From Acaryochloris thomasi RCC1774 (GTDB lineage Bacteria > Cyanobacteriota > Cyanobacteriia > Thermosynechococcales > Thermosynechococcaceae), in contig NZ_PQWO01000032.1 of assembly GCF_003231495.1 (NCBI RefSeq), positions 1 through 32,000 on the forward strand: a stretch of 32,000 nucleotides of DNA, given 5' to 3'. The position numbers and the translations under genes are program-made. This document shows, piece by piece, positions 1,267 to 30,631 of this stretch. The notes beneath the pieces were generated by a model, which was given only the letters and a program-made list of their open reading frames with translations, did no database searches and was not told the origin of the DNA. How positions within the stretch are numbered: position 1 is the first letter of the stretch; every line of letters starts with the position of its first letter.

Positions 1267-2923
1267 TTTTCTTGAAGTTCAACCGTCAGATCCAAGCCTC
1301 GTTAGATATGCCAAGAACAACCCGGCTCGTCTTGGGATGCTTTCGGCCTGTGTCCTGGCTGTCTTATTGCTGCAGGTCTTTGCCGGTCAGACCAAAAAGA
1401 CCAAGCTAGCCAAGGGGCATCTTGCCAAGGGGCTGGAGAAGAAGAACGCCCTAAATCTGATGAAGCAACAGCAGGCGGCAAAGAAGCTGACCAAAACTGC
1501 ATTCAACATCAGACAGCCAGGGCAAAAGGGATTTCTGGCAGTCCCTAATGCCCAGCCAGGGGTACTTGTGCTGGGTTCTCCGGGTGCGGGTAAGACGGCC
1601 TCGGTGATCAACCCGCTAGTGAGATCAGCGATTGACCAGGGCCACCGGATCATCATGTTTGACTGGAAGTATCCAGACCAAGCCTCTCAGCTCGTTCCCT
1701 ATGCAGCGGCGAGAGGGTACAAGCGGATCAATGTGTTTGCCCCTGGCTTTGCTGAGAGCCAGCGTATCAACCCCCTGGACCTAATTGAGAGTCCAGAGGA
1801 TATGATCGGTGCCCAGGAGCTAGCCCTCTCCATCCTGCAAAACGATAGCAAGGTTAATACCGATTCGACGACTCAATTTTTCTTGGATAGCGCCGCGAGT
1901 CTATTGGCTCCCATCTTTTGCGTCGTCAAAGGTTGCCAGTACCCCGATCTGCTGACGGTGTTGATGATTCTGCAATCTGAGAACCTCATCGAACGGCTCA
2001 AGTCAGCGAAGATCGGTCGTTATCAGCGCCTGATGCTGCAGCAAGCCATCGCAACCGCAGGCAGTCCAAAGCAGTTGGCGGGTTTGTTGACCTCGACCAT
2101 CAAGCCTTTGACGAACTTCCTACTGGGCGACAACATGATCAACGCCGTTGTTGGAGCGTCAAGCTTTGATCCAATCCTGAGGCCCAAAGAGATGATCGTC
2201 TTTGGGATGGATCGCAATAATTCCGAAGCCTTGAAGCCGTTGATTGGTTCAACCCTTCGGATGACGATGAAAAATAATTTGTTGAATAAATGTGGTGTTC
2301 CTCTTATCGCTTCTCTAGACGAGCTATCAACCCTGGAACTGCCGATTACAGAATGGCTCAATACAAATCGTTCGGATGGTTTTGTGGGCCTGATCGGTTT
2401 GCAGAATCTAGAACAGTGTGACAAGGACCGCCGCCGCGAGTTGAAGACGGGTTGCCCGACCAAAATGCTCTTCAATCCCAATGATGACGAGACTGCAGAA
2501 ATGTTCTCGAAGTGGCTTGGTAAGGAGCAAGTCGGCACAAAATCCAAAACAGAGGGCTGGAGTTCGGGTAAACGTAGCCGTAGCACTTCCGGTCGAGAGC
2601 AAGCCGTGGATATGTTGCAAGCAGCCGATATTCTGAAGCAGCCCGAGGGTGTTGCCTTGGTCCTCAACAGTGGGCATCGCAATGCAAAAGAAGCGTCGGT
2701 CCCCTTCCGGCATCGCTTCACTTATACCAGTAAAGACGAAGCGCAGGAAGCGAAACTGCAAGGGCTTTGGGAAGAAGCCTGTCTGCCTCGGCTCGTCGGA
2801 CGTGCTCCAGCGATGACGGGCGAAGTCGATGCAATGATTAAGGCCAGACGCAACGAAGCCAAGAAACTTCTAGGAAACCCTGATAAAGGGACACACAGGG
2901 GTCCAAAGGGCGGCAATAAATAG
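1256..2923 (+). CDS. Type IV secretion coupling protein (VirD4/TraG/TrwB family)
   Basis: 555 aa with an N-terminal TM segment (LGMLSACVLAVLLLQVFAG). Walker A is VLVLGSPGAGKTAS and Walker B-like is PLIASLDELSTL. GTG 1256 or ATG 1259 start overlaps the upstream stop. Confidence 0.85.
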   Translation: MMTDFLEVQPSDPSLVRYAKNNPARLGMLSACVLAVLLLQVFAGQTKKTKLAKGHLAKGLEKKNALNLMKQQQAAKKLTKTAFNIRQPGQKGFLAVPNAQPGVLVLGSPGAGKTASVINPLVRSAIDQGHRIIMFDWKYPDQASQLVPYAAARGYKRINVFAPGFAESQRINPLDLIESPEDMIGAQELALSILQNDSKVNTDSTTQFFLDSAASLLAPIFCVVKGCQYPDLLTVLMILQSENLIERLKSAKIGRYQRLMLQQAIATAGSPKQLAGLLTSTIKPLTNFLLGDNMINAVVGASSFDPILRPKEMIVFGMDRNNSEALKPLIGSTLRMTMKNNLLNKCGVPLIASLDELSTLELPITEWLNTNRSDGFVGLIGLQNLEQCDKDRRRELKTGCPTKMLFNPNDDETAEMFSKWLGKEQVGTKSKTEGWSSGKRSRSTSGREQAVDMLQAADILKQPEGVALVLNSGHRNAKEASVPFRHRFTYTSKDEAQEAKLQGLWEEACLPRLVGRAPAMTGEVDAMIKARRNEAKKLLGNPDKGTHRGPKGGNK

Positions 2924-2942
2924 CACCGGAACGCAGCTAGAT

Positions 2943-2972
2943 ACAGCTTTTATCTCCACTTGCAATAGATCG
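2943..2972 (+). promoter_or_regulatory. Conserved promoter/operator-like box, copy 1 (ACAGCTTTTATCTCCACTTGCAATAGATCG)
   Basis: One of nine copies of the ..ACAGCTTTTT-N6-8-CTTGCAATAGATAGA motif, each upstream of and co-oriented with a gene. Confidence 0.6.
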
Positions 2973-3221
2973 GTATAACCAAACCGACTTAAGCCCAGTG
3001 ATTCATTTCGCTGGCAGTCATTGGCAGAACTCAAATCTGAATAAAGGGCAGACCTTTAACTAGCAATGCCCTCAGAGGAGAGGGAACCACTTTCTACGGA
3101 GTGGTTTGGAGGTTTGATTCCTTCAATTGCTCTAGGTGCTGTGCGGGTCTCCAATCCCCCACAGTTTCCAAAACGATGTCCTTCGGGATGTCAGATCTGA
3201 CAATGAATTGGAGGAAAAATC
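2973..3221 (+). promoter_or_regulatory. Structured 5' leader, copy A (divergent paralogue of copies B and C)
   Basis: Aligns with 5585-5830 and 6840-7090. Contains a tRNA-like element (3062-3132), an anti-SD-loop hairpin (3139-3164), a UUCG hairpin (3176-3191), the palindrome TGTCAGATCTGACA (3189-3202) and SD ATTGGAGG before ATG 3222. Confidence 0.6.
3062..3132 (+). ncRNA. tRNA-like cloverleaf element inside leader A (not a decoding tRNA)
   Basis: Acceptor AGCAAT(G)/AATTGCT pairs 6 of 7. D-arm is CCTC/GAGG. The arm CCACT..C/G..AGTGG is capped by UACG. T-arm is GGAGG-TTTGATT-CCTTC. There is no anticodon loop and no CCA. Confidence 0.4.
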
Positions 3222-4175
3222 ATGTTTCAGTTGAGTGAGAAAGCTCTTGGTGAGACCTTTTGTGAACAAGCGGAGAACAAGGATCTGAGTACACTTCTGG
3301 CGTATCTGCGTTGGACCTTTTCAGGCCCCAATGTCGATATATTCAAGGAGTGGATTAGCCTCCCCAGTTTCTATAGGGACTGGTTTGATTTCGGAGACCG
3401 CAAAAATCTTCGTACTGTTTACAGAAGTCTTCTTCGGGCGAATTCTTGTTTGGCAGAAAGTTGTGAGTGGAGACTAAAGAAATTGTGTGGAAGTGCTGCT
3501 TGTTCTGAGACTGAGCTGACGGTTTATTACTCAGGTATTGCCGAGAGCAATATTGAGTGTGCCGGAGAGCGCAGTGATAGTCAGCCGATGGTATGGCTAG
3601 CTCAGCAATGTATCACTCTATGCGATCATTTGGTTCGCCAAACGTATCTGTTAAAGGAGACCAAGGCGGCGATTGAGGAGGCGGAGCTTTCTGATTGGCT
3701 CAAGGAGCAGTCGGAGACAGAGTGGGAGCCTGTGGCAAGTTCGTTTAACAACGTCTTGTCTCAAGAAGCCCATCCTTCTTTTGAGTCGTTGACGACTGAA
3801 AGTCAGGCGAGTGAGGAGTGTACCGATGAGGAGTGTAGCGACTGTCCTTTTGAGCCGGAGCGTCGGGCAGGTCTTGTAGACTGTCCTGGCGTTCCGTCAC
3901 GTTGCTCATGTGACGAGACGGCGGTATCTGGTGCTGACCCATCAGAGACGCAGGCTCAGGAGAGTGTTCGCCCTGTTGAGAGTAGCGAAAAACCTGCGAA
4001 GGATCTAAATACTCTTTGCTCAGTTTTAGCTATTGCGTTCGGTCTAAGTGCTGGGTTCAACCTGGCTCTGATAGAGGATCGGGTTAATCCCCCGGAAGTA
4101 GAGGCGCACGAAAAGCAGGAGCTGGTGAGTTATGCGAATAGCTTGCTAGTCGATGGCAGAGCGGTTCGTCCGTGA
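3222..4175 (+). CDS. Hypothetical protein (Cys-rich, acidic middle region, C-terminal hydrophobic segment)
   Basis: 317-aa ORF directly preceded by SD GGAGG and leader A. No family recognised. Confidence 0.65.
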   Translation: MFQLSEKALGETFCEQAENKDLSTLLAYLRWTFSGPNVDIFKEWISLPSFYRDWFDFGDRKNLRTVYRSLLRANSCLAESCEWRLKKLCGSAACSETELTVYYSGIAESNIECAGERSDSQPMVWLAQQCITLCDHLVRQTYLLKETKAAIEEAELSDWLKEQSETEWEPVASSFNNVLSQEAHPSFESLTTESQASEECTDEECSDCPFEPERRAGLVDCPGVPSRCSCDETAVSGADPSETQAQESVRPVESSEKPAKDLNTLCSVLAIAFGLSAGFNLALIEDRVNPPEVEAHEKQELVSYANSLLVDGRAVRP

Positions 4176-4194
4176 TGCTTGCACTTCCTAACTA

Positions 4195-5482
4195 GTACTG
4201 TCCGGCATGAATAGAGCCATTATTTAAGCCACGAGCGGTTTCCCCCTGTAAGTCCATTTGAAAGGCTTCGCCATCGTGTGGTTGAAGTACTCCACAAATT
4301 CTAGAATTCTTCGTTTGAGCTGCGCTTGACTTTTGAAGCTCGCACGCCGCAGTAGCTTTCGCACCAGAATGCTGAACCACAGTTCAATTTGGTTGAGCCA
4401 CGAGCAATGCTTAGGGGTGAAATGGACTACCAGTCGATGAGACGGGTTGGTCAAGAACTCAGCTCGCGTGACCATCGATTTGAGAATTCCCCGCTTTCCT
4501 TTAGCCCCCAATTCAATCTGCTCTTCTTCTAATGCAGATGCTAGGCGTACCATCGCCTCTGATTGATGAGTATTGAGACAATCCATCACCAAATGGTACT
4601 TTTTCGCTGCATTGTTTTCCTCAAGGAGACCGCTGACATGAGCCTCCAAATCCTTCTCAGTTCGGGTGTTGTCCACCGTTGCCTTGGCGATTTGGCCACT
4701 GGCGACATTCAAGCTAGCAATTAACGCTTGAGTGCCATGACGAATATATTCAAATTCGCGCTTGACCGGTCGACCCGGCTTCATGGGTATGTCTGGCATG
4801 GTGCGCTCTAGCGCCTGAATCCCTGGCATTTCGTCGAGACTGAAGGTCATCTCTCCCTGCTCAGCCCGTCCTTGAGCGTGCTGGTAGACCTGACAGATAT
4901 CGTCGACCTTGGCTTGGAACTGTGGGTCGGGGGGGATGCAACCAGTAGCGACTCTGGTGCGGCTTGAGGTCTGCTTCTTCCAGCAATCGACCCACATGGC
5001 GTTCACTGATACTCTCGACAATGCCTTGCTTGGTCATCTCAGTGGCTAATTCCCGAGCGCTCCAGTGACTAATAGGGAGACCATATTTCTCCGGTGGGTC
5101 ACAGGCAAGAGCATACAACTGGGTTAGTTGCTCTAAGCTAAATTTGGCAGGACCACCGGGGCGGGGAGCATCTTTAAGACGCTCTTCTACTGATAAATCG
5201 CAATCTGATAACTCTAGCCAACGCCGACGCCATAAGCGACTTGTATCGAGACTAATGCTCAAGGCTCTGGAAATCTCGCCATAGCCTGCGCCGGAGGCGG
5301 ACCGAAGGATGATCTTGGCGCGAAGGGCAATTTGTTGAGGCGTGCTTGACCGTCTCAGCAGCTTTTCTAGGGCTAGCCGGTCTGATTCACTCAACAATAC
5401 TGCCGGGGCCGATAATCTAGGCATCGAAACACTACGCGCTCAACTCCTTCTTGAGGATAGGGCTATTCGTGCCGCTCAGTAC
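4195..5482 (-). mobile_element. IS630-family insertion sequence
   Basis: Imperfect terminal inverted repeats: GTACTGTCCGGCATGAATAG (left end) against the reverse complement GTACTGAGCGGCACGAATAG (right end), 17/20 matches. Both ends are flanked by TA (4193-4194 and 5483-5484). Encodes an HTH plus DDE_3-type transposase. Confidence 0.85.
4224..5424 (-). CDS. IS630-family transposase in two overlapping frames (4861..5424 HTH part; 4224..5021 DDE part)
   Basis: N-terminal HTH, with DDE-like residues in SLDEMPG, LVMDCLNTH and WLNQIELWF. The frames meet at a C7 tract (G7 on plus strand, 4929-4935). Removing one C gives ..YWLHPPDPQFQAKV.. Confidence 0.85.
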
Positions 5483-5512
5483 TAGTCTCAATCACACCGT
5501 AGAAATAGCAAT

Positions 5513-5543
5513 CGCTCTCAGGGTAAAACCTGGGGGCGTTTTT
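5513..5543 (+). terminator. Rho-independent terminator of the conserved 3' cassette module
   Basis: CGCTCTCAGGG-TAAAA-CCTGGGGGCG followed by TTTTT. Preceded by the conserved CACACCGTAGAAA. The same module occurs at 6767-6801 and 7474-7506. Confidence 0.7.
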
Positions 5544-5551
5544 GTTTGAAT

Positions 5552-5584
5552 ACAGCTTTTTTCACGACTTGCAATAGATAGATA
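5552..5584 (+). promoter_or_regulatory. Conserved promoter/operator-like box, copy 2
   Basis: ACAGCTTTTTTCACGACTTGCAATAGATAGATA. Confidence 0.6.
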
Positions 5585-5830
5585 TACACCAAACCGACGT
5601 AAGCCCAGCGATTCATTTTGCTGGCTGTCACAGGTTCCAACTAGCCGAATAAAGGGCGTTTCATTCATTTGCGATTGTCCTCGGTGGGAGGAGCCATTCT
5701 ACGGAGTGGTTAGGGGTTCGATCCCTCCAATTGCTCTAGGCACTGCACGGGCCTCCAATCCCCTGCATTTGCCAAAGCGATGTCCTCCGGGATGTCAGTA
5801 CTGACATTAACTAAATTGGAGAATCGAACG
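5585..5830 (+). promoter_or_regulatory. Structured 5' leader, copy B
   Basis: Nearly identical to copy C over its central ~140 nt. Contains a tRNA-like element (5670-5736), an anti-SD-loop hairpin (5744-5767), a UCCG hairpin (5780-5795), the 16-bp palindrome ATGTCAGTACTGACAT (5792-5807) and SD ATTGGAGA before ATG 5831. Confidence 0.65.
5670..5736 (+). ncRNA. tRNA-like cloverleaf element inside leader B
   Basis: Acceptor (T)GCGATT/AATTGC(T) pairs 6 of 7, including one G-U. D-arm is CCTC-GGTGG-GAGG. The 6-bp arm CCATTC/GAGTGG is capped by UACG. T-arm is (A)GGGG-TTCGATC-CCTC(C), matching the canonical T-loop. No anticodon loop, no CCA. Confidence 0.45.
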
Positions 5831-6517
5831 ATGACTAACGCAACTAATAACGACGCGATCGCCAAGTTGACTCGCAACTCTTTAATCGAGGGCATGTGCA
5901 AACATGCTTCCCAGCATTCTGAAAAGCCAATCGCCAACGCGAAGGGTCTCAGGAACTGGGTCATCGCGACTTACTACGATGAGACCAATGCCGAAGTCGG
6001 TGGTCTTAACGGGTTCGCGCATGACTTGAACTATAAGGCTGTGAGTTTTCGGAAGCGTGAGCATTGCGAAAAGTTGTTTCGTCTATTGTCTGCCGATGCC
6101 TCCGGGTTGACGCAGCGAAAGGCGAAAGTTCAGTCAAAAGGCGGCGGTCGGTTGACGTGGGCAAAAGCCGTACGCGGCGTTGTCTATTTCATTGCGGACC
6201 ATGCAGAAGCTGCAAAAGCGGCTGTAGATGATATCCCAGATTCCGAGCTTAAATTAACGAGCATGAAGTCTGTGAGGAGTCTACAGAGCGCCCTGCAATC
6301 CCGGATTGAAAGCCACAGTGATGATCCTGTCGTCACTTTGCGGGCTGAGATTTACCAGTTGGTAGGGGTCAATACCGAAGACGATCTGCGGCAGTGGTTG
6401 AAAGACCAGTTTGCTCCAGAGGAAGCTGAGGCTATTGATGCTTGGGACTTTAGCAAACATTCGGACCTGCTGACGGTTCAGCGGATTGCTTTAGGTATGC
6501 AACAACAGGAGGCGTAG
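5831..6517 (+). CDS. Hypothetical protein
   Basis: ATG 5831 follows SD TTGGAGAAT. The track start at 5780 lies inside the conserved leader and is unlikely. 228 aa. The C-terminal ~55 aa resemble the product of 6519..6746. Confidence 0.7.
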   Translation: MTNATNNDAIAKLTRNSLIEGMCKHASQHSEKPIANAKGLRNWVIATYYDETNAEVGGLNGFAHDLNYKAVSFRKREHCEKLFRLLSADASGLTQRKAKVQSKGGGRLTWAKAVRGVVYFIADHAEAAKAAVDDIPDSELKLTSMKSVRSLQSALQSRIESHSDDPVVTLRAEIYQLVGVNTEDDLRQWLKDQFAPEEAEAIDAWDFSKHSDLLTVQRIALGMQQQEA

Positions 6518-6518
6518 C

Positions 6519-6746
6519 ATGAGCAGCGAGACAGTCTACCTACCCGGAGACCCCGTTGCCGTGCTCCGTGGCCAAATAGAAAGGGTGGTCAAGCCCCAGG
6601 GTGAGACATTTGCAGAAGCGGTGAGGCGATGGCTAATAGCCGAGCATTACCCGCATTATGCAGAGAACTTTGATCCAGATAGCTATATGGATCTGGTGCA
6701 GGTGGAAACCTGTATCAAAGCGAAGTTCTACCCTCTCTATAACTAA
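6519..6746 (+). CDS. Small hypothetical protein (75 aa)
   Basis: ATG lies 1 nt after the upstream stop. The pattern DPV..LRGQI..V....E.....RRWL...DL..V resembles the C-terminus of 5831..6517. Confidence 0.6.
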   Translation: MSSETVYLPGDPVAVLRGQIERVVKPQGETFAEAVRRWLIAEHYPHYAENFDPDSYMDLVQVETCIKAKFYPLYN

Positions 6747-6766
6747 CCACACCGTAGAAACAATAA

Positions 6767-6801
6767 GCGCTCTCAGGGTTAAACCTGGGGGCGCTTTTTT
6801 T
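6767..6801 (+). terminator. Rho-independent terminator of the conserved 3' cassette module
   Basis: GCGCTCTCAGG-GTTAAA-CCTGGGGGCGC followed by T7. Preceded by CCACACCGTAGAAA (6747-6760). Confidence 0.75.
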
Positions 6802-6806
6802 GCGCT

Positions 6807-6839
6807 CGACAGCTTTTTTGCCCACTTGCAATAGATAGA
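6807..6839 (+). promoter_or_regulatory. Conserved promoter/operator-like box, copy 3
   Basis: CGACAGCTTTTTTGCCCACTTGCAATAGATAGA. Confidence 0.6.
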
Positions 6840-7090
6840 CATACACCAAACCGACTTAAGCCCAGTGATTCATTTCATTGGCGGTCATGGGTTCCAACTA
6901 GCCGAATATAGGGCGTTTCATTCATTTGCGATTGTCCTCGGTGGGAGGAGCCATTCTACGGAGTGGTTAGGGGTTCGATCCCTCCAATTGCTCTAGGCAT
7001 TGCACGGGCCTCCAATCCCCTGCATTTGCCACCGCGATGTCTCGCAAGAGATGTCAGTACTGACAAAAAACAAAATTGGAGAATCGAATC
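6840..7090 (+). promoter_or_regulatory. Structured 5' leader, copy C
   Basis: Contains a tRNA-like element (6927-6993), an anti-SD-loop hairpin (7001-7024), a hairpin ATGTCTC-GCAA-GAGATGT (7037-7054), the palindrome TGTCAGTACTGACA (7052-7065) and SD ATTGGAGA before ATG 7091. Confidence 0.65.
6927..6993 (+). ncRNA. tRNA-like cloverleaf element inside leader C
   Basis: Sequence identical to copy B across the cloverleaf. Confidence 0.45.
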
Positions 7091-7420
7091 ATGTTTGGAT
7101 TTATACATCTAGTAGACGTTTTCTACACTCCTTTTGTGATCGTGGCGCTATCGGTTCTGTACAGGTCAATGAACGCCTGGGCAGAGTCGAATCAGGCTCA
7201 AGTTAAGTCAAAGGCAAACGCTGGAGCTAAGTCTTCGCCAACGGCTGTCCGACAGCCTGCCGCGAAAGCTGAGGTAACCCCTCCACGTAAGGTCGTTACA
7301 CCACCTGCCGTGAAGCCCATTGCTAAGCCCGCAGCTCAACCCAAGGCAAGGACGCCGCGCCCCACATTGGAAGATGTTATGAGACAGGAGGCAGAGCGTC
7401 GTCTCGGGGAAGCGTCATAA
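7091..7420 (+). CDS. Small membrane-anchored Pro/Ala/Lys-rich protein
   Basis: ATG 7091 follows SD TTGGAGAAT. N-terminal TM segment (FGFIHLVDVFYTPFVIVALSVLY), then a basic PAxK-rich tail. 109 aa. Confidence 0.6.
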   Translation: MFGFIHLVDVFYTPFVIVALSVLYRSMNAWAESNQAQVKSKANAGAKSSPTAVRQPAAKAEVTPPRKVVTPPAVKPIAKPAAQPKARTPRPTLEDVMRQEAERRLGEAS

Positions 7421-7473
7421 CTTCCTTGGCGATGTCGTTTTGTCTTCACTAGCCACACCGTAGATATATCAGC

Positions 7474-7506
7474 GCTCTCAGGGTCATACCTGGGAGCATT
7501 TTTTTT
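7474..7506 (+). terminator. Rho-independent terminator of the conserved 3' cassette module
   Basis: GCTCTCAGG-GTCATA-CCTGGGAGC followed by a T8 run. Preceded by CCACACCGTAGATA (7453-7466). Confidence 0.7.
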
Positions 7507-7511
7507 CGCTT

Positions 7512-7544
7512 CGACAGCTTTTTGCCCCACTTGCAATAGATAGA
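7512..7544 (+). promoter_or_regulatory. Conserved promoter/operator-like box, copy 4
   Basis: CGACAGCTTTTTGCCCCACTTGCAATAGATAGA. Followed by a different ~200-nt leader that shares only TAAGCCCAG and CAATTGCTC with leaders A-C. Confidence 0.6.
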
Positions 7545-7745
7545 TATCACAACCAACTTGTTTGGCGCATAAGCCCAGCAGATTAGTTTTTGTTGGCAGA
7601 GAGTCGGTGCGTAACCCGACTCATATTTTCAAGCCACTTAGAGCAATTGCTCAGCGATCGCTCCGAGTGGGGAGAGAAGGCCGTTGGTCTGCTAAGGCAT
7701 AGCCTTCGATTGCTGGAAACACCCAAGTCAGTCGGAGGACGACCA

Positions 7746-7985
7746 ATGGCAATTCCAGCGCACATCTGGAACAAGCACTTTCCTGAGAGTAATGCTGTGG
7801 TGCCCGAGCCGCAGTATGCGATCGGCGAGGAGGTTTACCTGAAACTTTGCCCAGAGAGGAGGTTTATCGTGATTCGGAACTACATAGCCTACGAACAACC
7901 GACGTCAGCCGGTGAGCGATGGCTAGAGTTATCGAGCTGCGATCGTCCTGCTTTCTGGAAAGAGAATCAGCTCCAGCGTGTGTAG
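7746..7985 (+). CDS. Small hypothetical protein (79 aa)
   Basis: ATG 7746 is preceded by a strong SD (GGAGGACGACCAATG). The track start at 7590 lies in the leader and is unlikely. Confidence 0.6.
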   Translation: MAIPAHIWNKHFPESNAVVPEPQYAIGEEVYLKLCPERRFIVIRNYIAYEQPTSAGERWLELSSCDRPAFWKENQLQRV

Positions 7986-8050
7986 ACGATAGGAGCCTGT
8001 GGTTATTCCACGGGTTCCTATGACCACCGTAATAAATATTGGAGAATGAA

Positions 8051-9140: not shown

Positions 9141-9450
9141 TTTCTTCGGCATAGCATCAAGGCGATTGTTGGGTCTCGTTGAGCAAATGGCTGATGAGTC
9201 CAGTGAATCTGCTGTGGCTATTCTAAGGTCGCCAGACTTGCGAGATCGCCTTGTTTCTTCTGACGATGGCGTGGTTTTGGAGACCCAGATTAGGCCGGAT
9301 GGCATTCATCGGACTGTACTTGGTTCCGATAAGAATTTTTTCGCGAATATTGCCTCCGGTCCTGGTCGCAACACCTTCGATGGGATCGTGGCTGGTGCAT
9401 TGAGGTTGGTAAGTGAGAGCGATGGAGAAGGAGTGCGACCATGCAGATAG
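9133..9450 (+). CDS. Small hypothetical protein (105 aa)
   Basis: ATG 9133 (MSDFFGIASRR..). The upstream part of the track ORF (from 8971) looks non-coding. The 3' end overlaps the next start by 10 nt. Confidence 0.5.
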   Translation: MSDFFGIASRRLLGLVEQMADESSESAVAILRSPDLRDRLVSSDDGVVLETQIRPDGIHRTVLGSDKNFFANIASGPGRNTFDGIVAGALRLVSESDGEGVRPCR

Positions 9451-10973
9451 TGGTACAGAAAATAGGTGACAGCAGCGTTTTGGTGACACCTGACGGCCAG
9501 CCAATCCCATACGTTGATTGTGACGATTGGACGCTTCATTTGATGCCCCAGATTTTGATAAACAGTCGGGTTTCCTCCGTCTCTCTGATTAGGGCGAATC
9601 TGAAGTTGAGGAATGATGGCGCAGGTCCATTAGGGTTGCCGCATTTTACCTTTCATAACGTCCTGCCCATCGACGTTCAGATCACTCAGCCCTTCCCTAA
9701 CGAGAGCTTTTATGTCGCTGGGAGTGTTGATCGCAAGATGGGTTGGGAGTTTCCATTGCTAGAGAATCAGACCTGGGCCGAATTGTCTTTAACTTGGGAA
9801 GTTGATCAGAATCAGCCTTGGACGATCCATCACCGCATCAGATTCAATTTGGAGCATACACAGCAGGGTCATCTCTTCTCAATGGCGAGTGCCAACACTA
9901 TGTTTGGCATCAATTCTCAAAATGCGAAGGCGATCGCGCACTTCGATGAATCATCACTGGGTCATACATTCGCGAAAAGCGATGATTCGTTTCACTGCAG
10001 ATTTGATAAAAGTCACTTCCGTATTGATTTTGAGCAGACACTTGACCTCCAAAGCCATGCCTGGAGTGACGTGCCCCACCTTGAGTTGCTTGAGAATCAA
10101 ACCCAGCTCCACAATATCGAGCCAGCTACAACGTTTTCGACCTATCGCAAAGAGCATCTTTCTTGTGCTTGTTTAGAGATCCCCTCTGACGTTTTGCTTG
10201 AAGCCGTAGAAGATGCGCGACAAGAGACTCATTCATTGTCAGCGGGTCAGTACCACACTTCAAAAGCAGTGCGAAAGATTTGCGACTGGTGGAACCAGAA
10301 TGCCCCGGTCGAATCCTTTCGCCATGCGGGAGGCGTCGAGATTTGGTGTCGGGTCGAAGATGGTCCTGAATATTGGTCGGCTCAGGAGGAACGACCTGAA
10401 ACAGATATCAAGTGCCTCTTAAAGCTAGACCCGAACACCTGTGCCCGTTTTGGCGATCACTTTTTGATTTACTTCCTAGAGAAGCCATCGGAGAATCGCA
10501 TCGACGATAACGATACTCGCTATATCAACTATGTCGATGGAACAAGTTGCACGAATATCTGGGATGAAGTCGAATATAGCTACTTCTCTTGGCAGAGCTT
10601 GTCTGTACTTCCTACGATGTTTCCGGTTGCTTATGAGCAAGTGTTGGCTAAGGGATACAGCCTTACTTCGCCAGAGCGTTTAATTTCTCAGTACCAGAGT
10701 GGAGAGCGTCGTTTTCCGATCCTCGCGCTAAGAGGCGCTAACTTTTCTGGGATGGATTTACGAGGCATCGATTTATGGGAGAGCGATCTGCGGGGTGCCA
10801 ATTTTAGTGGTGCGAACCTTGAAGGTGCATGTCTGGTGGGTTGTGATTTGCGAGGGGTAGATTTCTCGTATGCCAATCTATCGCGCACTGATCTTCGTAA
10901 TGTGTGGATTAAAGCCACGAATCTCTATGGGGCCAATCTAGAGGGGGCAGATCCTTGGCCTCCAGGTGCTTAA
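9441..10973 (+). CDS. Large hypothetical protein with a C-terminal pentapeptide-repeat domain
   Basis: 510 aa with SD GGAGAAGGAG. The C-terminus reads YQSGERRFPILALRGANFSGMDLRGIDLWESDLRGANFSGANLEGACLVGCDLRGVDFSYANLSRTDL.. (A(D/N)LxX repeats). Confidence 0.8.
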   Translation: MQIVVQKIGDSSVLVTPDGQPIPYVDCDDWTLHLMPQILINSRVSSVSLIRANLKLRNDGAGPLGLPHFTFHNVLPIDVQITQPFPNESFYVAGSVDRKMGWEFPLLENQTWAELSLTWEVDQNQPWTIHHRIRFNLEHTQQGHLFSMASANTMFGINSQNAKAIAHFDESSLGHTFAKSDDSFHCRFDKSHFRIDFEQTLDLQSHAWSDVPHLELLENQTQLHNIEPATTFSTYRKEHLSCACLEIPSDVLLEAVEDARQETHSLSAGQYHTSKAVRKICDWWNQNAPVESFRHAGGVEIWCRVEDGPEYWSAQEERPETDIKCLLKLDPNTCARFGDHFLIYFLEKPSENRIDDNDTRYINYVDGTSCTNIWDEVEYSYFSWQSLSVLPTMFPVAYEQVLAKGYSLTSPERLISQYQSGERRFPILALRGANFSGMDLRGIDLWESDLRGANFSGANLEGACLVGCDLRGVDFSYANLSRTDLRNVWIKATNLYGANLEGADPWPPGA

Positions 10974-11026
10974 GAACCATGTATTGAGATATTTGTGTCA
11001 ACAACAAGTTTGGAGAATGTGAACGT

Positions 11027-11644
11027 ATGCAATCAACTAATGCCAAAGCCTCTACGCCAGTTGACGAGATCCTTCTGCCAGCTCAGGCTGCGGCGTTCCT
11101 GGGTGTGACGGAGGAGCAGTTGCACAATGCTGTGTGCCAGGGTTATCTACCTGGGGCTTGCATTGATGGTCAGTGGCGGTTTAGCAAGCGCGGGCTGAGT
11201 AAGTTCTGCTGGCAAAGAAACAATCACAACGGTTCCGCGCCCTGGCTTGAGAACTCCTGTGGTCCCTACTGGTTGGGCGATTGGGCTGAACAAAAGGCAA
11301 AAGGTGTGATCGAGGCTTATGAGGCAGGGGAAAGATACTTCCCTGGACTCTCCATAAAAGGTGGACGTTTTGATGGTCAGGATCTTAGTGGTATTGATTT
11401 TTGGGAGTCCGGCTTGAAGGGTGCAAGCTTTTCTGGATGTATTCTCAAGCAGGCCATTTTTGTTGGTGCGGATCTTACCTCAGCCGTATTCAGGAATGCA
11501 GATCTATCCGATGCAAACCTTGAGGGAGCTGTGGTTGAGGATGCTGACTTCAGTGGAGCTATCCTGAATCGGACTAACTTTGCGGTCAGCTTGATGAGTG
11601 GAGCAAAGCTAGATGGAGTCAGTATCAGCATGGTCTCCTTCTGA
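11027..11644 (+). CDS. Excisionase-type HTH fused to a pentapeptide-repeat domain
   Basis: The N-terminus LPAQAAAFLGVTEEQLHNAVCQGYLPGACIDGQWRFSKRGL has an excisionase/MerR-like HTH pattern. It is followed by YEAGERYF and pentapeptide repeats. Confidence 0.75.
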   Translation: MQSTNAKASTPVDEILLPAQAAAFLGVTEEQLHNAVCQGYLPGACIDGQWRFSKRGLSKFCWQRNNHNGSAPWLENSCGPYWLGDWAEQKAKGVIEAYEAGERYFPGLSIKGGRFDGQDLSGIDFWESGLKGASFSGCILKQAIFVGADLTSAVFRNADLSDANLEGAVVEDADFSGAILNRTNFAVSLMSGAKLDGVSISMVSF

Positions 11645-11716
11645 CGGTTCGACTCTTGTGAGCAACAGTATTCACCCCGGTTCATTTTCGTTCTTTGTGT
11701 CTGGAACTGAGTTTAT

Positions 11717-12388
11717 TTGTGTAATGTAGTTGGAGCATGGCAGCTAGTGGAGTTAATCGACAGAAGCATTGCTGTGTCAGGGTCGAGTGAGATAAACCTT
11801 GAAGATGCTATATCCCTAATTAGTCTGGACAAAGAGCATATCCTCTCTGATGTAGGTAGGGGGAGGATAAAGGCAACTCGTGTGAATGGTGAATGGATGT
11901 TCGATCGTCAGGATTTATGTGTCTATCAGTACTACTACTATCCAGATTGTGATCAGTTAGAGCCATCAACTCTCTCTTTCCCGACGCCTTTGACCCCGGA
12001 GTCTGTATGGCGTGAGTACCAGCGAGGAGCGAGAGATTTCTCTTGCAGAGCAGTGAGCAACAATGCTGATTTTTCGTGTAAGTCATTGCCAGAAATTGAC
12101 TTTAATTATTCAAAGCTTGCGGGTGTTAACTTTGAAGGCTCAGACCTGAGGCAAGCCAACTTTCGCGATGCCAATATGTTTAGGGTCAACATGAGAAATA
12201 CAAAGCTGGCTGGGGCTAGCTTTGAGGGCGCTGAACTGCGAATCGTAGACTTCTCTGGTGCAGACCTAACCAATGTTAATTTCGGTGGTTCAAAAATCGG
12301 AAAGATTCAGCTCCAAGACGCAATCATTCGGAACACCCAGTTTTTCGAGGGAATTCTGTTGACAACAGTAAAGCCAGATTATCGGTAG
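11717..12388 (+). CDS. Excisionase-type HTH fused to a pentapeptide-repeat domain (start uncertain: TTG 11717 or GTG 11747)
   Basis: ISLDKEHILSDVGRGRIKATRVNGEWMFDRQDL, then YQRGARDF and repeats (VNFEGSDLRQANFRDANMFRVNMRNTKLAGASFEGAEL..). Confidence 0.75.
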   Translation: MCNVVGAWQLVELIDRSIAVSGSSEINLEDAISLISLDKEHILSDVGRGRIKATRVNGEWMFDRQDLCVYQYYYYPDCDQLEPSTLSFPTPLTPESVWREYQRGARDFSCRAVSNNADFSCKSLPEIDFNYSKLAGVNFEGSDLRQANFRDANMFRVNMRNTKLAGASFEGAELRIVDFSGADLTNVNFGGSKIGKIQLQDAIIRNTQFFEGILLTTVKPDYR

Positions 12389-17782: not shown

Positions 17783-17815
17783 TCATCTATTGCAAGTGGC
17801 CGAAAAAGCTGTCGA
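17783..17815 (-). promoter_or_regulatory. Conserved promoter/operator-like box, copy 5 (drives the relaxase)
   Basis: Minus strand reads TCGACAGCTTTTTCGGCCACTTGCAATAGATGA. The box ends ~24 nt before relaxase ATG 17761. Confidence 0.6.
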
Positions 17816-18717: not shown

Positions 18718-18750
18718 AACAGCTATTTTTGCGACTTGCAATAGATATAT
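18718..18750 (+). promoter_or_regulatory. Conserved promoter/operator-like box, copy 6
   Basis: AACAGCTATTTTTGCGACTTGCAATAGATATAT. About 25 nt upstream of SD AGGAG and ATG 18775. Confidence 0.6.
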
Positions 18751-18774: not shown

Positions 18775-19041
18775 ATGACAGAGTTAAGACCTCACACAAC
18801 CCTCTTATTGTTAGAGCTTATATGGGAAGGAACCTACATACGACCATCCGCTCAACGTGATTGGGTAGAGCAGAACTTTGAACGTCTTCAACTGCTGCTT
18901 GAGAAGCAGGCTTACACCAAGGTCTGTGAACAATTTGCTGATGAGATTCAAATCAGTCCCGCAACGCTGTCCAAGCATTACAAAGCAACGAAGAAAAATA
19001 AACGCTGGCAGCGAGGAAAACCTCGTCGCCAGGATAGATAG
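18775..19041 (+). CDS. Small basic-tailed protein, putative DNA-binding (paralogue of 19113..19532)
   Basis: 88 aa. RDWVEQNFERLQLLLEKQ..ISPATLSKHYKATKK aligns with HHQWVEKHFALLQDMIEKQ..LSPQTLQKHYQAVKK. Confidence 0.65.
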   Translation: MTELRPHTTLLLLELIWEGTYIRPSAQRDWVEQNFERLQLLLEKQAYTKVCEQFADEIQISPATLSKHYKATKKNKRWQRGKPRRQDR

Positions 19042-19112: not shown

Positions 19113-19532
19113 GTGACTGATTTCAAGAAAATACAAGACCTCCTAGAAGAACTGCATGACGAAGGGGATCATATCCCTGAGCGTTCATCGATTCATCATC
19201 AGTGGGTAGAGAAGCACTTCGCTCTCCTTCAAGACATGATTGAGAAGCAGAGACACCCGCTCAAAAAAATAACGGAAAAATTAAAGGCAGAGATCACTCT
19301 AAGCCCTCAAACACTGCAGAAACATTACCAAGCCGTTAAGAAGCTCAAGCTTGCGGAAGCCAGACGTGCAAAGAAAAATCAGACTACTGAAGCTGCCACC
19401 TCTGCTGCCGTTTGCGATCGCAGAGGTGGCAGCACTAAACAATCTCGGGCAAGGGTAAAACCTCCAGAGGTGGACTTGTCGAAGATCAGTCCACCGCCTC
19501 AATTAGTACATGCAGAAATTGTAGAGGATTAA
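19113..19532 (+). CDS. Small protein, putative DNA-binding (paralogue of 18775..19041) with an extended basic tail
   Basis: GTG start after SD TGGAG. 139 aa. Paralogy as described for 18775..19041. Confidence 0.65.
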   Translation: MTDFKKIQDLLEELHDEGDHIPERSSIHHQWVEKHFALLQDMIEKQRHPLKKITEKLKAEITLSPQTLQKHYQAVKKLKLAEARRAKKNQTTEAATSAAVCDRRGGSTKQSRARVKPPEVDLSKISPPPQLVHAEIVED

Positions 19533-22574: not shown

Positions 22575-22829
22575 ATGAAGCTAATTGGGATGAAGGTAAG
22601 AAAAGTAATTGATGTTGAAGTTCCTGGGTTGGGACTCCAAATCAAAGAGGCTAGGGAAAGAGACCCGCGTTCTCTGGCTAGTATCTGTCGAGAGATTGAT
22701 ATGACACCTATGAATTGGTACAAGATTGAGGCAGAGGGCACTAAGGCTTTGCCTGAAGAAACGTTGCGAGATATTGAGAAGGTGCTTGGTGTCGATCTTG
22801 GGGTCAGCTTTGAAGTGGCTGCTGCTTAG
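22575..22829 (+). CDS. XRE-family helix-turn-helix regulator
   Basis: 84 aa. LQIKEARERDPRSLASICREIDMTPMNWYKIE fits the HTH_3 pattern. SD AAGGAG. Confidence 0.7.
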   Translation: MKLIGMKVRKVIDVEVPGLGLQIKEARERDPRSLASICREIDMTPMNWYKIEAEGTKALPEETLRDIEKVLGVDLGVSFEVAAA

Positions 22830-23264: not shown

Positions 23265-23297
23265 CGACAGCTTTTCGCACGTTTTGCAATAGATAGA
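23265..23297 (+). promoter_or_regulatory. Conserved promoter/operator-like box, copy 7
   Basis: CGACAGCTTTTCGCACGTTTTGCAATAGATAGA. About 27 nt before GTG 23324. Confidence 0.55.
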
Positions 23298-23671: not shown

Positions 23672-25125
23672 TTAACAGACTGCAGCAGGGCTATAGCGTA
23701 TTGGCCCTAGAATCCCCCTTCAGTGAACGGATGCGAGTGCTGGCGGATTTAGAGCAATGGTCAGAGCAGCCGATCTACTTTTGGAGTCCTGGCTATTCCA
23801 AAGTGCTGCAGTACAAGAATAACCGTCTGGTCAGCATCGGACAGATAGATCGCTCAGGCAGCATCAATAGTCCTATGGATTTACTCAATGAGGCAGGGAT
23901 CTACTTACTCGAAGGGGGGCTAGATAAATTCAACCATTTTGTCTGGGTGGATCTGTACCACCGACTCAGGGAAGGCTATACCGTCATTGCCTTGGATCCT
24001 GCTCCAGAGCTGCACGATGATTTACGCGCCATCATTCCCCTAGTGATTGATGCAGTACCTGAATATCGGACTGTAGAGCTATGGCTGTGCGAATATCTCA
24101 ATAGATCGCCGTCGCCGCGACTGGTAAGAGCATGTCTGGGCTTGCATCTTGGCGCACTAGAGCAAATATTGGATCGGGTGGACCACGGTGATGAAGATGC
24201 GATGGCCGAAGGCCGGTCGGAGACCATCGCAAATTACGTCATTGGTCAGAAAACCGCTCAGCTCAGCGCGGTCGGTCTAGAGTCGATGGGTCAGCCCGAT
24301 GTCGAGATTGGTGGCCTCGACCAACTCAAAGAAATGCTGCACAAAACCACCAAGCTGTTCAGCCCAGAGGCAAGAGAAGCGGGCCTCAACTATCCCAAAG
24401 GGCTTATTCTCTGGGGTCTCCCCGGTACAGGTAAATCTTTAACAACCAAGACCGCCGCGCATTTGTTGGGTATGCCGCTGCTGGCAACTGACTGGAGCCA
24501 GATTATAGACGACAACAATCCAGCCAAAGCAGCAGCTAACTTGAGAGCCATCATTCAAATTGCGGAAGTTCTCTCGCCCTGCGTCCTGGCCTGGGATGAC
24601 TTTGAGAAGATGCCCCTTGGCGCACTGCACGGCATTTTGCTCACCTGGATGCAGGAGCGGACTAAGCCTGTGTATATCATCAGCAGCGTCAACCGTCTTG
24701 AGAAGCTGCCGCCCGAGATGATCCGGGCCGGTCGCTTTGACCAGATCGTATTTGTCGATCTGCCGAAAGAAGGAGAGCGGCAGGAGATCATCGCGCTTCA
24801 CCTGGCGCGATACACCGAGAGTGTTGAGTTCTCAAAGCTGGACTGGCACAACCTAATTAGTGCCTTCCGCAACTGCACGGCGGCTGAAATAGCTGGTGCT
24901 GTCAAGCAAGCTGCTGAAGAAGCTTTTTGTCAGGATAGGGCGGGGCAGATCACCGTGCAGGATTTGGTGCATCAGCGCAGCTTGTTTGTGCCCTCGATGA
25001 TTCGAGATGAGGATAGTATGTTAGCCATCCGCAAGCTGGCGCACTTGGCTCGCCCTGCCAGCGGTCCCGACAACTCTCAATGGCGAGTACCGCCGAGCGA
25101 GATGTTTGAGTTTATGGAGGATTAA
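23662..25125 (+). CDS. AAA+ ATPase (classic AAA clade) with an unknown ~230-aa N-terminal domain
   Basis: Walker A is LILWGLPGTGKSLT and Walker B is CVLAWDDFEK. The second region of homology is PPEMIRAGRFDQIVFVDLP. Confidence 0.85.
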   Translation: MDLINRLQQGYSVLALESPFSERMRVLADLEQWSEQPIYFWSPGYSKVLQYKNNRLVSIGQIDRSGSINSPMDLLNEAGIYLLEGGLDKFNHFVWVDLYHRLREGYTVIALDPAPELHDDLRAIIPLVIDAVPEYRTVELWLCEYLNRSPSPRLVRACLGLHLGALEQILDRVDHGDEDAMAEGRSETIANYVIGQKTAQLSAVGLESMGQPDVEIGGLDQLKEMLHKTTKLFSPEAREAGLNYPKGLILWGLPGTGKSLTTKTAAHLLGMPLLATDWSQIIDDNNPAKAAANLRAIIQIAEVLSPCVLAWDDFEKMPLGALHGILLTWMQERTKPVYIISSVNRLEKLPPEMIRAGRFDQIVFVDLPKEGERQEIIALHLARYTESVEFSKLDWHNLISAFRNCTAAEIAGAVKQAAEEAFCQDRAGQITVQDLVHQRSLFVPSMIRDEDSMLAIRKLAHLARPASGPDNSQWRVPPSEMFEFMED

Positions 25126-25152
25126 CAGGATTTTTGGCTTTTGCAATAGCTA
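25124..25152 (+). promoter_or_regulatory. Conserved promoter/operator-like box, copy 8 (degenerate)
   Basis: AACAGGATTTTTGGCTTTTGCAATAGCTA. The repeat starts in the stop codon of the AAA gene (GGATTAACAG..), exactly as copy 9 starts in the stop of 25204..25587. Confidence 0.5.
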
Positions 25153-25203
25153 GGTAAGCGTTTGACAGGATTTTGGAATTTTTACTAATTGAGGAATTTC
25201 CCT

Positions 25204-25587
25204 ATGAGACCTGAAATGATTTTTTTGAGTGTCGCCATCATGTTTTCGGGTTACTTGGGTTTCCCGCCAGGCGTTTGGTGGGCCTGGACTGTATCTGTCT
25301 TTTCAACGTTCGCTGCGGCTGCGATCGTGTTGTTGTTGTTGCTTGCCGATAAGTCAAAGCTGATGGAGCACCCGCAGCCTGAAATCAGAGCAGCGGTAAT
25401 AGGTGTGATGACTTCAATTGCCCAAACAAACTACTGGTTTATTGGCATTGTGAATCTTGCCTTTGTTTTCGGTTTCACAGCTAAAGGCCGCATATGGCTT
25501 GCGATCGCCATCGCAATATCCACGTTTTCTATGTTTGTTTTGCGCGAGATTGTTTCACGGCAGCTCCAGAGTGCTGCCGTGGATTAA
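25204..25587 (+). CDS. Integral membrane protein (about 4 TM)
   Basis: ATG 25204 follows SD GAGGAA. The track's TTG 25189 would place the SD inside the ORF. 127 aa, hydrophobic. Confidence 0.6.
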   Translation: MRPEMIFLSVAIMFSGYLGFPPGVWWAWTVSVFSTFAAAAIVLLLLLADKSKLMEHPQPEIRAAVIGVMTSIAQTNYWFIGIVNLAFVFGFTAKGRIWLAIAIAISTFSMFVLREIVSRQLQSAAVD

Positions 25588-25616
25588 CAGCTTTTTTGGC
25601 TTTTGCAATAGATAGC
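25586..25616 (+). promoter_or_regulatory. Conserved promoter/operator-like box, copy 9
   Basis: AACAGCTTTTTTGGCTTTTGCAATAGATAGC. Confidence 0.55.
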
Positions 25617-30298: not shown

Positions 30299-30631
30299 TT
30301 AGATGTAGAAACTTTCCAGTCTCTTCAGCATAAGCATTCATGCATTGTCAGGCTCTATAAATTGACCCGTCCGTTTTGTTCGTGAATCTGTATGACAAAT
30401 GTAGATGTCAATATTGGTGAACCAAATGAAACAAGATCAAGACCATAGCCAGAGCAAGTCTAAAGTTCAGCAGATAACCGACTTTATCGTAATCGCGATG
30501 CTTGTCTTTCCAATTGCAGGCTGGTTGGGTAACTTGCTTCAGCCAGCGCCACCCGATAATCAAGTTCCGGCTGCATGGAGTGACGAGCGCTAGCAATAAT
30601 CAAGTCTGAAGCCTGTCCTACTGTGGTTGTG

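Follow-up and report, generated by a model that had tools for sequence, protein, structure and literature searches.

We analyzed a stretch of 32,000 nucleotides from Acaryochloris thomasi RCC1774 (contig NZ_PQWO01000032.1, positions 1 to 32,000 of the forward strand), which is called the window below. Directly downstream of a gene for a VirD4/TraG-type coupling protein (T4CP; 1256-2923), the window contains an array of four consecutive units, in which open reading frames (ORFs) are preceded by long leaders. With some reserve, we favor the view that each unit carries the box of its replicon and a bistable leader that sequesters the Shine-Dalgarno (SD) sequence, and that most units end in a 3′ module acting as a translational lock. 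This view builds on the sequence anatomy of the units, the conserved pairing and covariation in the leader, the co-occurrence of a leader motif and the 3′ module, and the incongruence between leaders and ORFs. The statements on function are inferred from sequence, from comparison and from thermodynamic modeling of four replicons. The array does not represent a recombinational cassette system, and the finding is more than a duplication. The plasmid-wide distribution of the box, the predicted SD-sequestering bistable leader and the complementarity of the 3′ module to the leader had all been missed in the first-pass annotation of the window.

Anatomy of the array

Boxes of the form ACAGCT-N11-TTGCAATAGAT(A/C)G begin at 2943, 5552, 6809 and also at 7514. 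The first-pass annotation had listed boxes, leaders, SD sequences, CACACCGTAGA modules and terminators for three units, and all of these were found where it had placed them, the leaders being about 245 nt long and the modules being at 5493, 6748 and 7454. However, the module of unit 1 reads TCACACCGTAGAAA (TCACACC) and not CCACACC as had been given. The three units are indeed present but a fourth, with a box at 7514, a shorter leader and an ORF at 7746-7985, had been overlooked. All four units (1 to 4, or A to D) lie on the plus strand.

In unit 1, the box (ACAGCT-N11-TTGCAATAGATCG, 2943..2972) starts 20 nt past the T4CP stop codon and is followed by leader A (2975..3221), the 5′ untranslated region (UTR) of an ORF of 317 aa (3222..4175), which gave no family match. 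The 3′ module of this unit (5486..5545) comprises the leader-complementary CTCAATCACACCGTAGAAA, a terminator hairpin (5513-5538) and a T-run. In unit 2, the box (5552..5581, from the pattern search, as are those of units 3 and 4) and leader B (5585..5830) precede two ORFs (5831..6746), B1 (5831-6517, 228 aa) and B2 (6519-6746, 75 aa). Here the 3′ module (6741..6803, terminator hairpin 6765-6796) meets the coding region: CTAACCACACCGTAGAA overlaps the TAA stop codon at 6744-6746, and CCACACCGTAGAA begins at 6747, right behind it. Unit 3 consists of a box (6809..6838), leader C (6842..7090), an ORF of 109 aa (7091..7420) with a hydrophobic N-terminus and a Pro/Ala/Lys-rich tail, and the 3′ module CTAGCCACACCGTAGAT (7447..7506, terminator hairpin 7474-7497). 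Unit 4 has a box (7514..7543), leader D of the short type (7546..7745) and an ORF of 79 aa (7746..7985), behind which there is neither a CCGTAGA module nor a terminator. The SD sequences are TTGGAGG at 3208, TTGGAGA at 5816 and 7076, and TCGGAGG at 7732-7738. The hairpins of units 1 to 3 are perfect and GC-rich, with stems of 9-13 pairs and T-runs, as intrinsic terminators are, and this type of terminator was found nowhere else in the window. The cargo proteins had no match in Pfam, PADLOC, NCBIfam or PHROGs.

Four related replicons were used for comparison. L006 (stromatolite metagenome, 11.6 kb) carries a T4CP gene, a 212-aa gene and then four units, each with a box, a leader, an ORF and a terminator. 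Its ORFs encode proteins of 87 aa (the counterpart of unit 3), 221 and 71 aa (unit 2) and 80 aa (unit 4), plus a 175-aa protein to which the ORF of unit 1 is distantly related. The other three are Logan contigs: L090 (1.3 kb) has one D-type unit, L093 (2.5 kb) has a B-type unit and an E-type unit, and L005 ends 62 nt past its T4CP gene, at the start of a leader. B1 and B2 have counterparts in L093 as well, and the unit 4 protein is 62% identical in L006 and 84% identical in L090.

Right after the unit 4 ORF, a hairpin (GGAGCCTGTGG-TTAT-TCCACGGGTTCC) occurs at 7993-8019 in the window, at about 492-518 in L090 and at about 7362-7388 in L006. This hairpin is kept in the three replicons, has no T-run and is followed by the SD sequence of the next ORF. 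Possibly, it serves as an intercistronic element for processing or stability.

Predicted fold and covariation of the leader

RNAalifold on five long leaders gave a cloverleaf-shaped four-way junction (P1-P4), followed by two hairpins (P5 and P6), with 9 compensated pairs. In leader B, the helices are P1 (GCGAUUG/CAAUUGC, 5670-5677 with 5728-5735), P2 (CCUC...GAGG, 5678-5692), P3 (CCAUUC-UACG-GAGUGG, 5694-5709, with TCTACGGAGTGGTT at 5698-5711), P4 (GGGG-UUCGAUC-CCUC, 5712-5726), P5 (5739-5773, with the invariant loop CUCCAAU) and P6 (GAUGUCC-UCCG-GGAUGUC, P6a at 5779-5796), before the SD sequence at 5816-5822. Leader A has P1 at 3062-3069 with 3124-3131, P2 at 3070-3084, P3 at 3089-3104, P4 at 3108-3122, P5 at 3135-3169, P6a at 3175-3192 and the SD sequence at 3208-3214. 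The corresponding positions in leader C are 6927-6934 with 6985-6992, 6935-6949, 6951-6966, 6969-6983, 6996-7030, 7036-7055 (a variant with a GCAA loop) and 7076-7082. Leader D has P1 at 7653-7660 with 7707-7714, P2 at 7661-7675, P3 at 7680-7692 and P4 at 7695-7705, and possesses neither P5 nor P6.

A covariance model built from the five long leaders recovered the four short-type leaders and the independent leader of L093 (119.7 bits). With the structure model applied to 10 leaders from four replicons, 94.3% of the cells pair, as compared with 85.7% in column shuffles and 43-55% when the model is slid by 1-3 columns. Double-sided changes were found at 16 pairs, as against 9.6 in the shuffles, and none of 500 shuffles reached 16. 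G-U pairs account for 50 of 310 paired cells (16%), and the opposite strand would pair at only 78%. This G-U content argues that the leader structure belongs to the sense transcript. Moreover, the tetraloops UUCG, UCCG, GCAA and GCGA interchange with compensating changes in their stems, and such loop swaps are typical of RNA. Among the few independent sequences, the unpaired nucleotides that recur are limited to a GG in the loop of P2 and a box resembling AAUAGAG ahead of P1. Searches of Rfam gave no match at the gathering score in the whole window and nothing meaningful at E values up to 10 for 2900-7800 and 5655-5760; no described riboswitch class in Rfam matched the leader.

Three further observations on the leader should be mentioned. 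A perfect palindrome, P6b, overlaps the 3′ strand of P6a at 3189-3202, 5793-5806 and 7052-7065 in the window, at about 5068-5081 in L006 and at about 376-387 in L093. It stays symmetric despite changes (TGTCAG-NN-CTGACA, TGTCTGATCAGACA and TGTTTGCAAACA) and could fold as an alternative hairpin, act as a protein operator or serve in RNA dimerization. The HIP1 octamer GCGATCGC (7654-7661 in the window) lies within the 5′ strand of P1/P2 (AGCGAUCGCUC) in the short-type and L006 leaders, so that a repeat found genome-wide in cyanobacteria falls on a structural strand of the leader. An upstream ORF starting from the ATGs in P6 was considered and rejected: it is in the frame of the main ORF only in unit 2, and is out of frame or soon stopped in units 1 and 3.

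Two predicted states of the leader

The 3′ strand of P4/P1 (CCUCCAAUUG and its neighbors; in leader B about 5716-5733) is complementary to the SD sequence AAUUGGAG(A/G) and to the spacer that separates it from the start codon. This anti-SD sequence (CCUCCAAUU in unit 3) pairs in register with the SD sequence in all nine leaders checked (three replicons), with 8-11 contiguous pairs and −15 to −22 kcal/mol. Extensions of the anti-SD helix are lineage-specific, for example GUUCGAU with AUCGAAC. R in the motif C-R-AUUG covaries with both of its alternative partners, one in P1 and one next to the SD sequence. In P1, R is matched by U in the window and by C in the majority of the other leaders (leader D of the window, L006 and L090); beside the SD sequence the pair is A-U, G-U or G-C. 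For most leaders, the closed state also allows the 5′ strand of P1/P2 to pair with an upstream box (AAUAGAGCGA, or AAAGGGC in the window).

The minimum-energy folds sequester the SD sequence, with z-scores of −3.2 and −3.4, and opening it costs 3-15 kcal/mol in the energy model. The nearest-neighbor model preferred the closed (OFF) state in every leader. As modeled, the leader is a bistable, SD-sequestering RNA with the layout of a translational riboregulator.

Predicted pairing between the 3′ module and the leader

The sequence CTAACCACACCGTAGAA of the 3′ module is, with one mismatch, the reverse complement of TTCTACGGAGTGGTTAG, which covers P3 and the linker to P4. The resulting 5′-3′ helix has 15-16 bp and one A-A mismatch. 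When whole-unit mRNAs were folded, the predicted probability of this helix was about 87% in window units 1 (with the insertion sequence removed), 2 and 3, about 98% in units B and E of L093, and about 40% in unit B of L006. The duplexes have energies of −22 to −27 kcal/mol, which were equalled by 1 to 23 of 500 shuffles. Enforcing the helix raised the cost of opening the SD sequence by 0.9-2.5 kcal/mol.

The two halves of this helix occur together. Both the P3 motif and the 3′ module are present in six of ten units and both are absent from the other four (unit D of the window and units C, E and D of L006), with no mixed case. In the orthologous C and E units, one replicon has both halves and the other has neither. 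At the positions flanking the helix core, the pairs covary: one is A-A, U-A, G-U or A-U and the next is G-C, G-C, G-U or A-U. Pairing of the module with the leader of the next unit, by read-through or adjacency, was also considered. It was rejected, as it fits only three of eight junctions, whereas the same-unit pairing holds in 10 of 10 units. A sequence resembling the CCGTAGA module, GACCACCGTAATAAATATTGGAGAATG, is present at 8022-8050, right before the SD sequence of the ORF at 8051; it has no terminator.

Distribution of the box

The first-pass annotation had described the box as part of the frame around the ORFs of the array. The box is not specific to the array. The pattern ACAGCT-N11-TTGCAATAGATAG has seven matches in the window, where 0.02 are expected, and two weaker copies bring the number to nine. 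Besides the four in the array, copies are located before the TrwC-type relaxase gene (17783..17812, minus strand), before an 88-aa ORF at 18775 (18719..18748, plus strand), before an operon that starts at 23324 and encodes a 115-aa protein and then an AAA ATPase (23267..23296, plus strand), before an ORF at 25189 (the first of the two weaker copies, ACAGGATTTTTGGCTTTTGCAATAGCTAGG, 25125..25154, plus strand) and before a 717-aa ORF at 25655 (the second, 25587..25616, plus strand). Each of the nine is oriented toward its downstream gene. The five copies outside the array leave gene leaders of only about 20-60 nt. Because the box also precedes the relaxase gene and the transfer operons, it is a plasmid-wide, promoter-associated motif and not a cassette boundary. 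Since genes with the same box have leaders of 20-60 nt, a long leader is unnecessary for promoter function. From its position and orientation, the box probably acts as a promoter element, and through it the units of the array would be under the same transcriptional control as the transfer genes.

The box differs between the related replicons. All four L006 units are preceded by TTTTGGCTAATT...CCCCTATACTTCATTAG, which by eye contains TTGGCT-17-TATACT. In L005, the box AAAAGGAATAGTAATARTAAGA stands before a transfer gene and again after the T4CP gene. The L093 box is of the window type. A candidate for the regulator acting on the plasmid-wide box is a small protein with an HTH_31 (Xre-type) domain, which is encoded at 22575-22829, ahead of the copy at 23267.

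Proposed mechanism

We propose that each unit would be separately promoted from the general promoter-associated box of the plasmid. In the OFF state, the 3′ strand of P4/P1 would cover the SD sequence together with the spacer and, in some cases, the start codon. In the ON state, the same strand would close P1 of the cloverleaf junction P1-P4 and leave the SD sequence free. In units 1 to 3, the end of the mRNA would present a single-stranded CCACACCGUAGAA before the terminator hairpin, which could pair with P3 and the linker of its own leader. This pairing would close the finished mRNA head to tail and take P3 away from the junction. The most likely function of the 3′ module would then be a translational lock, of the kind known from hok tac/fbi or from the 5′-3′ UTR pairing of icaR. 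Translation would take place mainly on nascent or 3′-trimmed transcripts, or once some further factor stabilizes the junction.

Several points weigh against this proposal. A scan for the sigma-70 consensus did not call the boxes of the window, and we infer the transcription start sites, the 3′ ends, the folds in vivo, the direction of regulation and its trigger. Because OFF was predicted both with and without the 3′ module, the modeling points to no trigger for the ON state. The readable leaders come from four replicons only, of which the relatives are metagenomic contigs; a fifth replicon, L005, contributes just the start of a leader. Several leaders are related by gene conversion and therefore provide few independent observations. 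The leader alignment was fitted to the model, and the structure counts derived from it are supportive, not conclusive. As the 7-bp core of the 5′-3′ helix is invariant, covariation supports this helix at the two flanking positions only. Units D, L006 C and L006 E would work without a 3′ module, which makes the module accessory to the leader. Finally, the leader of L093 unit B pairs slightly better, by hand, with the module of unit E than with its own, so that action in trans is possible.

In that case, a 3′-UTR-derived small RNA (sRNA) of about 55 nt, consisting of a CCACACCGUAGAA seed, a hairpin and a U tail, would cross-regulate leaders with UCUACGG via P3. The architecture of seed, hairpin and U tail is that of known 3′-derived sRNAs, and the terminators have diverged unusually little in sequence between replicons that share only 28-47% identity in their ORFs. 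In addition to the L093 case, the three modules of the window fit all three leaders equally well. However, presence and absence of the two halves match within the unit in 10 of 10 cases, and among the orthologous C and E units, either both halves occur or neither does. A copy of the module on each target mRNA would also be unnecessary for an sRNA. We regard regulation in trans as unlikely, although it is the strongest competitor of a lock acting within one mRNA.

The shape of the leader invites a more far-reaching idea, which we consider improbable. The cloverleaf could be a true co-transcriptional tRNA mimic in a portable "closed-loop" cassette. The tRNA-processing enzymes would cut it, RNase P on the 5′ side of P1 and RNase Z or E behind P1, and with the anti-SD strand gone, translation would be turned on irreversibly. 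In finished transcripts, the 3′ module would pair with P3, disrupt the mimic and thereby lock translation off. In other words, activation resembling tRNA punctuation would be combined with a hok-like fold-back, and several accessory genes on a conjugative plasmid would get a short, self-limiting burst of expression. All ten leaders have the cloverleaf topology with a P1 of 7-8 bp, and in P3 a UACG loop of 4 nt takes the place of an anticodon loop. A T-like loop in P4 (UUCGAUC, UUCGAUU or UUUGAUU) is found only in the six leaders of the long type, as against a loop of 3 nt in the short type. The best Rfam match for the leader was tRNA-Sec, with 12.9 bits against a gathering score of 47 (E = 3.1), and ARAGORN reported 0 tRNA or tmRNA genes.

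Evolution of the units

The first-pass annotation had called the ORFs unrelated. This is not correct for units A and B. The ORF of unit A is similar to the 175-aa protein of L006 (E 9e-6), which is in turn similar to the 221-aa protein B1′ of L006 (E 7e-12), and B1′ is the counterpart of B1 in the window. From this chain of similarity, units A and B are ancient paralogues that arose by an old duplication of the whole unit. The ORFs of units 3 and 4 are unrelated to the A and B ORFs. As judged from sequence, the units are old and have orthologous units in other replicons. Their order differs: it is A-B-C-D in the window and C′-B′-E′-D′ in L006, where E′ is A-like.

Leaders and ORFs have different histories. 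Leaders B and C had been said to differ at about three positions over their central 140 nt, and leader A had been called a diverged paralogue; both descriptions proved accurate. We counted 2 differences over 5633-5774 and 4 over 5640-5779, and leader A is homologous to leaders B and C with 66-76% identity. The P1-P4 core of leaders B and C is identical at 73 of 73 positions, whereas these two leaders are only 60-66% identical to their L006 orthologues. Leaders thus group by replicon and not by ORF; unlike the leader cores, the P6 variants follow the ORFs. All four L006 units share an L006-specific promoter box and 5′ part of the leader. The ORFs of L093 are nearer to those of L006 (73%, 65% and 47% identity) than to B1 and B2 of the window (28% and 47%); yet L093 shares the type of box and 5′ leader with the window, and the P5 of L093 is similar to that of L006 unit C.

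The identity of leaders B and C over the 73-nt core is a mark of gene conversion. These comparisons indicate that the non-coding modules undergo concerted evolution by gene conversion within a replicon and mosaic exchange between replicons. Gene conversion or shuffling of inserts had been offered as alternatives in the first-pass annotation: the former is borne out by the 73/73 core as against 60-66%, but site-specific shuffling of cassettes is not, as no recombinase was found among the larger ORFs scanned and each unit has its own box and terminator. Modularity with incongruence, for which a comparison of related replicons had been suggested, was found in part, in the differing order of units and in the combination of L006-like ORFs with a window-type box and 5′ leader in L093. 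By Pfam, no integrase or recombinase was found in 30 of the larger ORFs of the window, the IS630 transposase having been identified separately by DNA similarity. No recombinase is needed for the evolution of the array; homologous recombination or gene conversion accounts best for its rearrangement.

Plain tandem duplication, with flanks that are only promoter, spacer and terminator and a leader without regulatory role, would account for the distant paralogy of the A and B ORFs and for the near-identity of leaders B and C, as recent conversion would leave it. However, the leader structure is kept by compensatory changes between replicons with ORFs of only 28-47% identity, the register of the anti-SD sequence is kept in nine of nine leaders, and genes with the same box do with leaders of 20-60 nt. 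We therefore consider it very unlikely that the leader is a passive spacer.

Slightly less probable still is a role of the modules at the DNA level. The inverted repeats CTAACCACACCGTAGAA/TTCTACGGAGTGGTTAG would be recombination sites, or they would be the ends of an intergenic element (module, terminator, box and 5′ leader) similar to miniature inverted-repeat transposable elements (MITEs), by which ORFs would be mobilized or shuffled in the manner of integron cassettes or Correia-type elements. Each ORF is indeed flanked, and each intergenic block bounded, by inverted repeats of 13-17 bp, unit order varies between replicons and the modules are mosaic. Against this, the larger ORFs scanned include no integrase or recombinase besides the IS630 transposase, attC-like sites are absent, and every unit comes with a promoter box. 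The G-U pairs of the helix are mismatches in DNA. Adjacency of MITE-like ends is seen at three of eight junctions in three replicons, as against same-unit pairing in 10 of 10 units, and conservation and covariation of the leader run past the repeat, through P4-P6 and the SD sequence.

The leading regions of F-like and IncI plasmids contain repeated non-coding elements of about 300 nt. By analogy, leaders could be single-stranded DNA elements (Frpo-like promoters or ssi priming signals) active on the transferred strand early after entry, which would suit repeated, structured elements of about 250 nt before orphan genes and beside transfer genes on a conjugative plasmid; but this is highly improbable, given a structure that depends on 16% G-U pairs and is organized around sequestration of a downstream SD sequence, which is a translational logic, a double-stranded promoter-type box before each leader, and an ArdC gene and divergent promoter region by the relaxase gene (17.8-21.8 kb), which, judging from R388, suggest a leading region on the other side of the relaxase gene.

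Genetic setting and database searches

The window lies in a cyanobacterial-type conjugative plasmid or integrative and conjugative element; its source contig measures 39.3 kb. The HIP1 octamer occurs 15 times in it, where 0.5 copies are expected. The relaxase gene (13778-17761, minus strand) encodes a TrwC relaxase fused to DUF3854, and an ArdC-like protein is encoded at 20933-21793. An insertion sequence of the IS630 family (4195..5482, minus strand) lies between the stop codon of unit 1 and its 3′ module, as the first-pass annotation had described: TA is present on both sides (4193-4194 and 5483-5484), the imperfect terminal inverted repeats begin with GTACTG, and the transposase DNA agrees with IS630-family annotations. 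The transposase is split into two overlapping ORFs (4861-5424 and 4224-5021, minus strand), which suggests a programmed frameshift or a disrupted copy.

Three pentapeptide-repeat proteins are encoded in a row at 9441-12388, the second of which (11027-11644) has an N-terminal HTH_17 domain (Pfam). At the matching position, L006 has a pentapeptide-like protein of 232 aa. These proteins may have DNA-mimic or establishment functions. A direct repeat of 65 nt with 71% identity (18845-18909 and 19186-19250) lies within the adjacent small ORFs 18775-19041 and 19113-19532; these are paralogous genes, beside the presumed origin-of-transfer side of the relaxase gene. Past the transfer genes, the minus strand at 27810-31979 has genes for a FolD-like dehydrogenase/cyclohydrolase and for a Ser/Thr protein kinase.

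Relatives of the array are rare. The closest relatives of the T4CP are only 49% and 44% identical to it. Neither nhmmer nor the covariance model found a leader at 80 loci (1.16 Mb) that surround genes for less similar T4CPs, of 30-39% identity. Thus, the leader family is narrow. A word-indexed protein search with B1 returned B1 itself only. The B1 family has two 50%-identity clusters among 1.84 billion cluster representatives (about 15 billion predicted proteins), and L093 was reached through the sole further cluster in this exhaustive search. In PLSDB (blastn distant mode), the IS630 copy was the only match. Pattern scans of DNA gave 0 matches for the leader and 0 for the box in viral contigs, and 0 matches in JGI metagenome contigs. 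In genome contigs, four pattern matches (Alphaproteobacteria, Planctomycetota and Acidobacteriota) were discarded as chance, as nhmmer showed no leader homology. Logan contigs of related replicons break exactly at the box/leader repeats (L007 at its end, L091 and L092 at the start, L005 at its end). Therefore, the leader family is under-represented in short-read assemblies.

Comparison with known systems

In hok/sok mRNAs, a tac/fbi fold-back is combined with sequestration of the SD sequence by the ucb element (PMC9841398). The array is alike in that a plasmid-borne mRNA has a 5′ element pairing with the far 3′ end, that the SD sequence is sequestered by an upstream complementary box, and that the same strands re-pair into closed and open states. 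By prediction, the 5′-3′ lock (87-98% probability in five of six units) and SD sequestration with an alternative open fold are common to both. In contrast to hok/sok, the ORFs of the array are of several kinds and 75-317 aa long, without a small toxin/mok arrangement, and only unit 3 has a hydrophobic N-terminus. No Sok-like antisense RNA was identified, although none was specifically searched for, and there is no similarity in sequence or in Rfam. Moreover, the 3′ element of the array lies upstream of an intact terminator hairpin, and several genes make use of the same module.

The mRNAs of icaR in Staphylococcus aureus (PMC3868564) and of hbs in Bacillus subtilis (PMC5737220) are regulated in their translation or stability by base pairing of their own 5′ and 3′ UTRs. 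The array shares such intra-mRNA pairing. However, the icaR 3′ UTR pairs with the SD sequence itself, whereas the module of the array pairs with P3 and a separate anti-SD strand in the leader covers the SD sequence. Unlike icaR and hbs, the array has a repeated, portable design on a plasmid.

The yjdF element is an example of a translational riboswitch from a class with a four-way or tRNA-like aptamer (PMC9142559). Similar features are the long 5′ UTR, the competition of a junction-closing helix with the anti-SD:SD helix, the cloverleaf topology and, in long-type leaders, a P4 loop of the UUCGAUC type, like the T loop of tRNA. On the other hand, the leader has no Rfam match and, among the few independent sequences, few invariant unpaired nucleotides, short-type leaders lack the T-like loop, and the gene content of the array suggests no ligand.

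Like an integron array, the array is a row of small, mostly orphan ORFs with recurring non-coding modules, and its order varies between relatives. It differs in having neither intI nor attC (on reading, there was no imperfect palindrome bounded by GTTRRRY). Its ends are intrinsic terminators, each unit has its own promoter box and terminator, and the recurring modules are transcribed regulatory RNA as predicted here.

The repressor networks of IncP plasmids (KorA/KorB) and of the IncW plasmid R388 use iterated promoter/operator motifs across the whole plasmid. The box resembles them as one short motif before most operons of a conjugative plasmid, which implies global co-regulation. It differs from them in sequence, and its regulator is a candidate, the HTH_31 protein.

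Significance

Bacterial mRNAs whose 5′ and 3′ UTRs interact are known for only a handful of individual genes, such as hok, icaR and hbs. In the array, the lock would be a reusable module on several plasmid genes, and related replicons provide natural variants with and without it. The leader is an RNA motif that is not catalogued in Rfam. The array also suggests that, as the genes of a replicon diverge, gene conversion can preserve the uniformity of its regulatory RNA modules. Taken together, the findings point to orphan plasmid genes under unusually tight control of expression.

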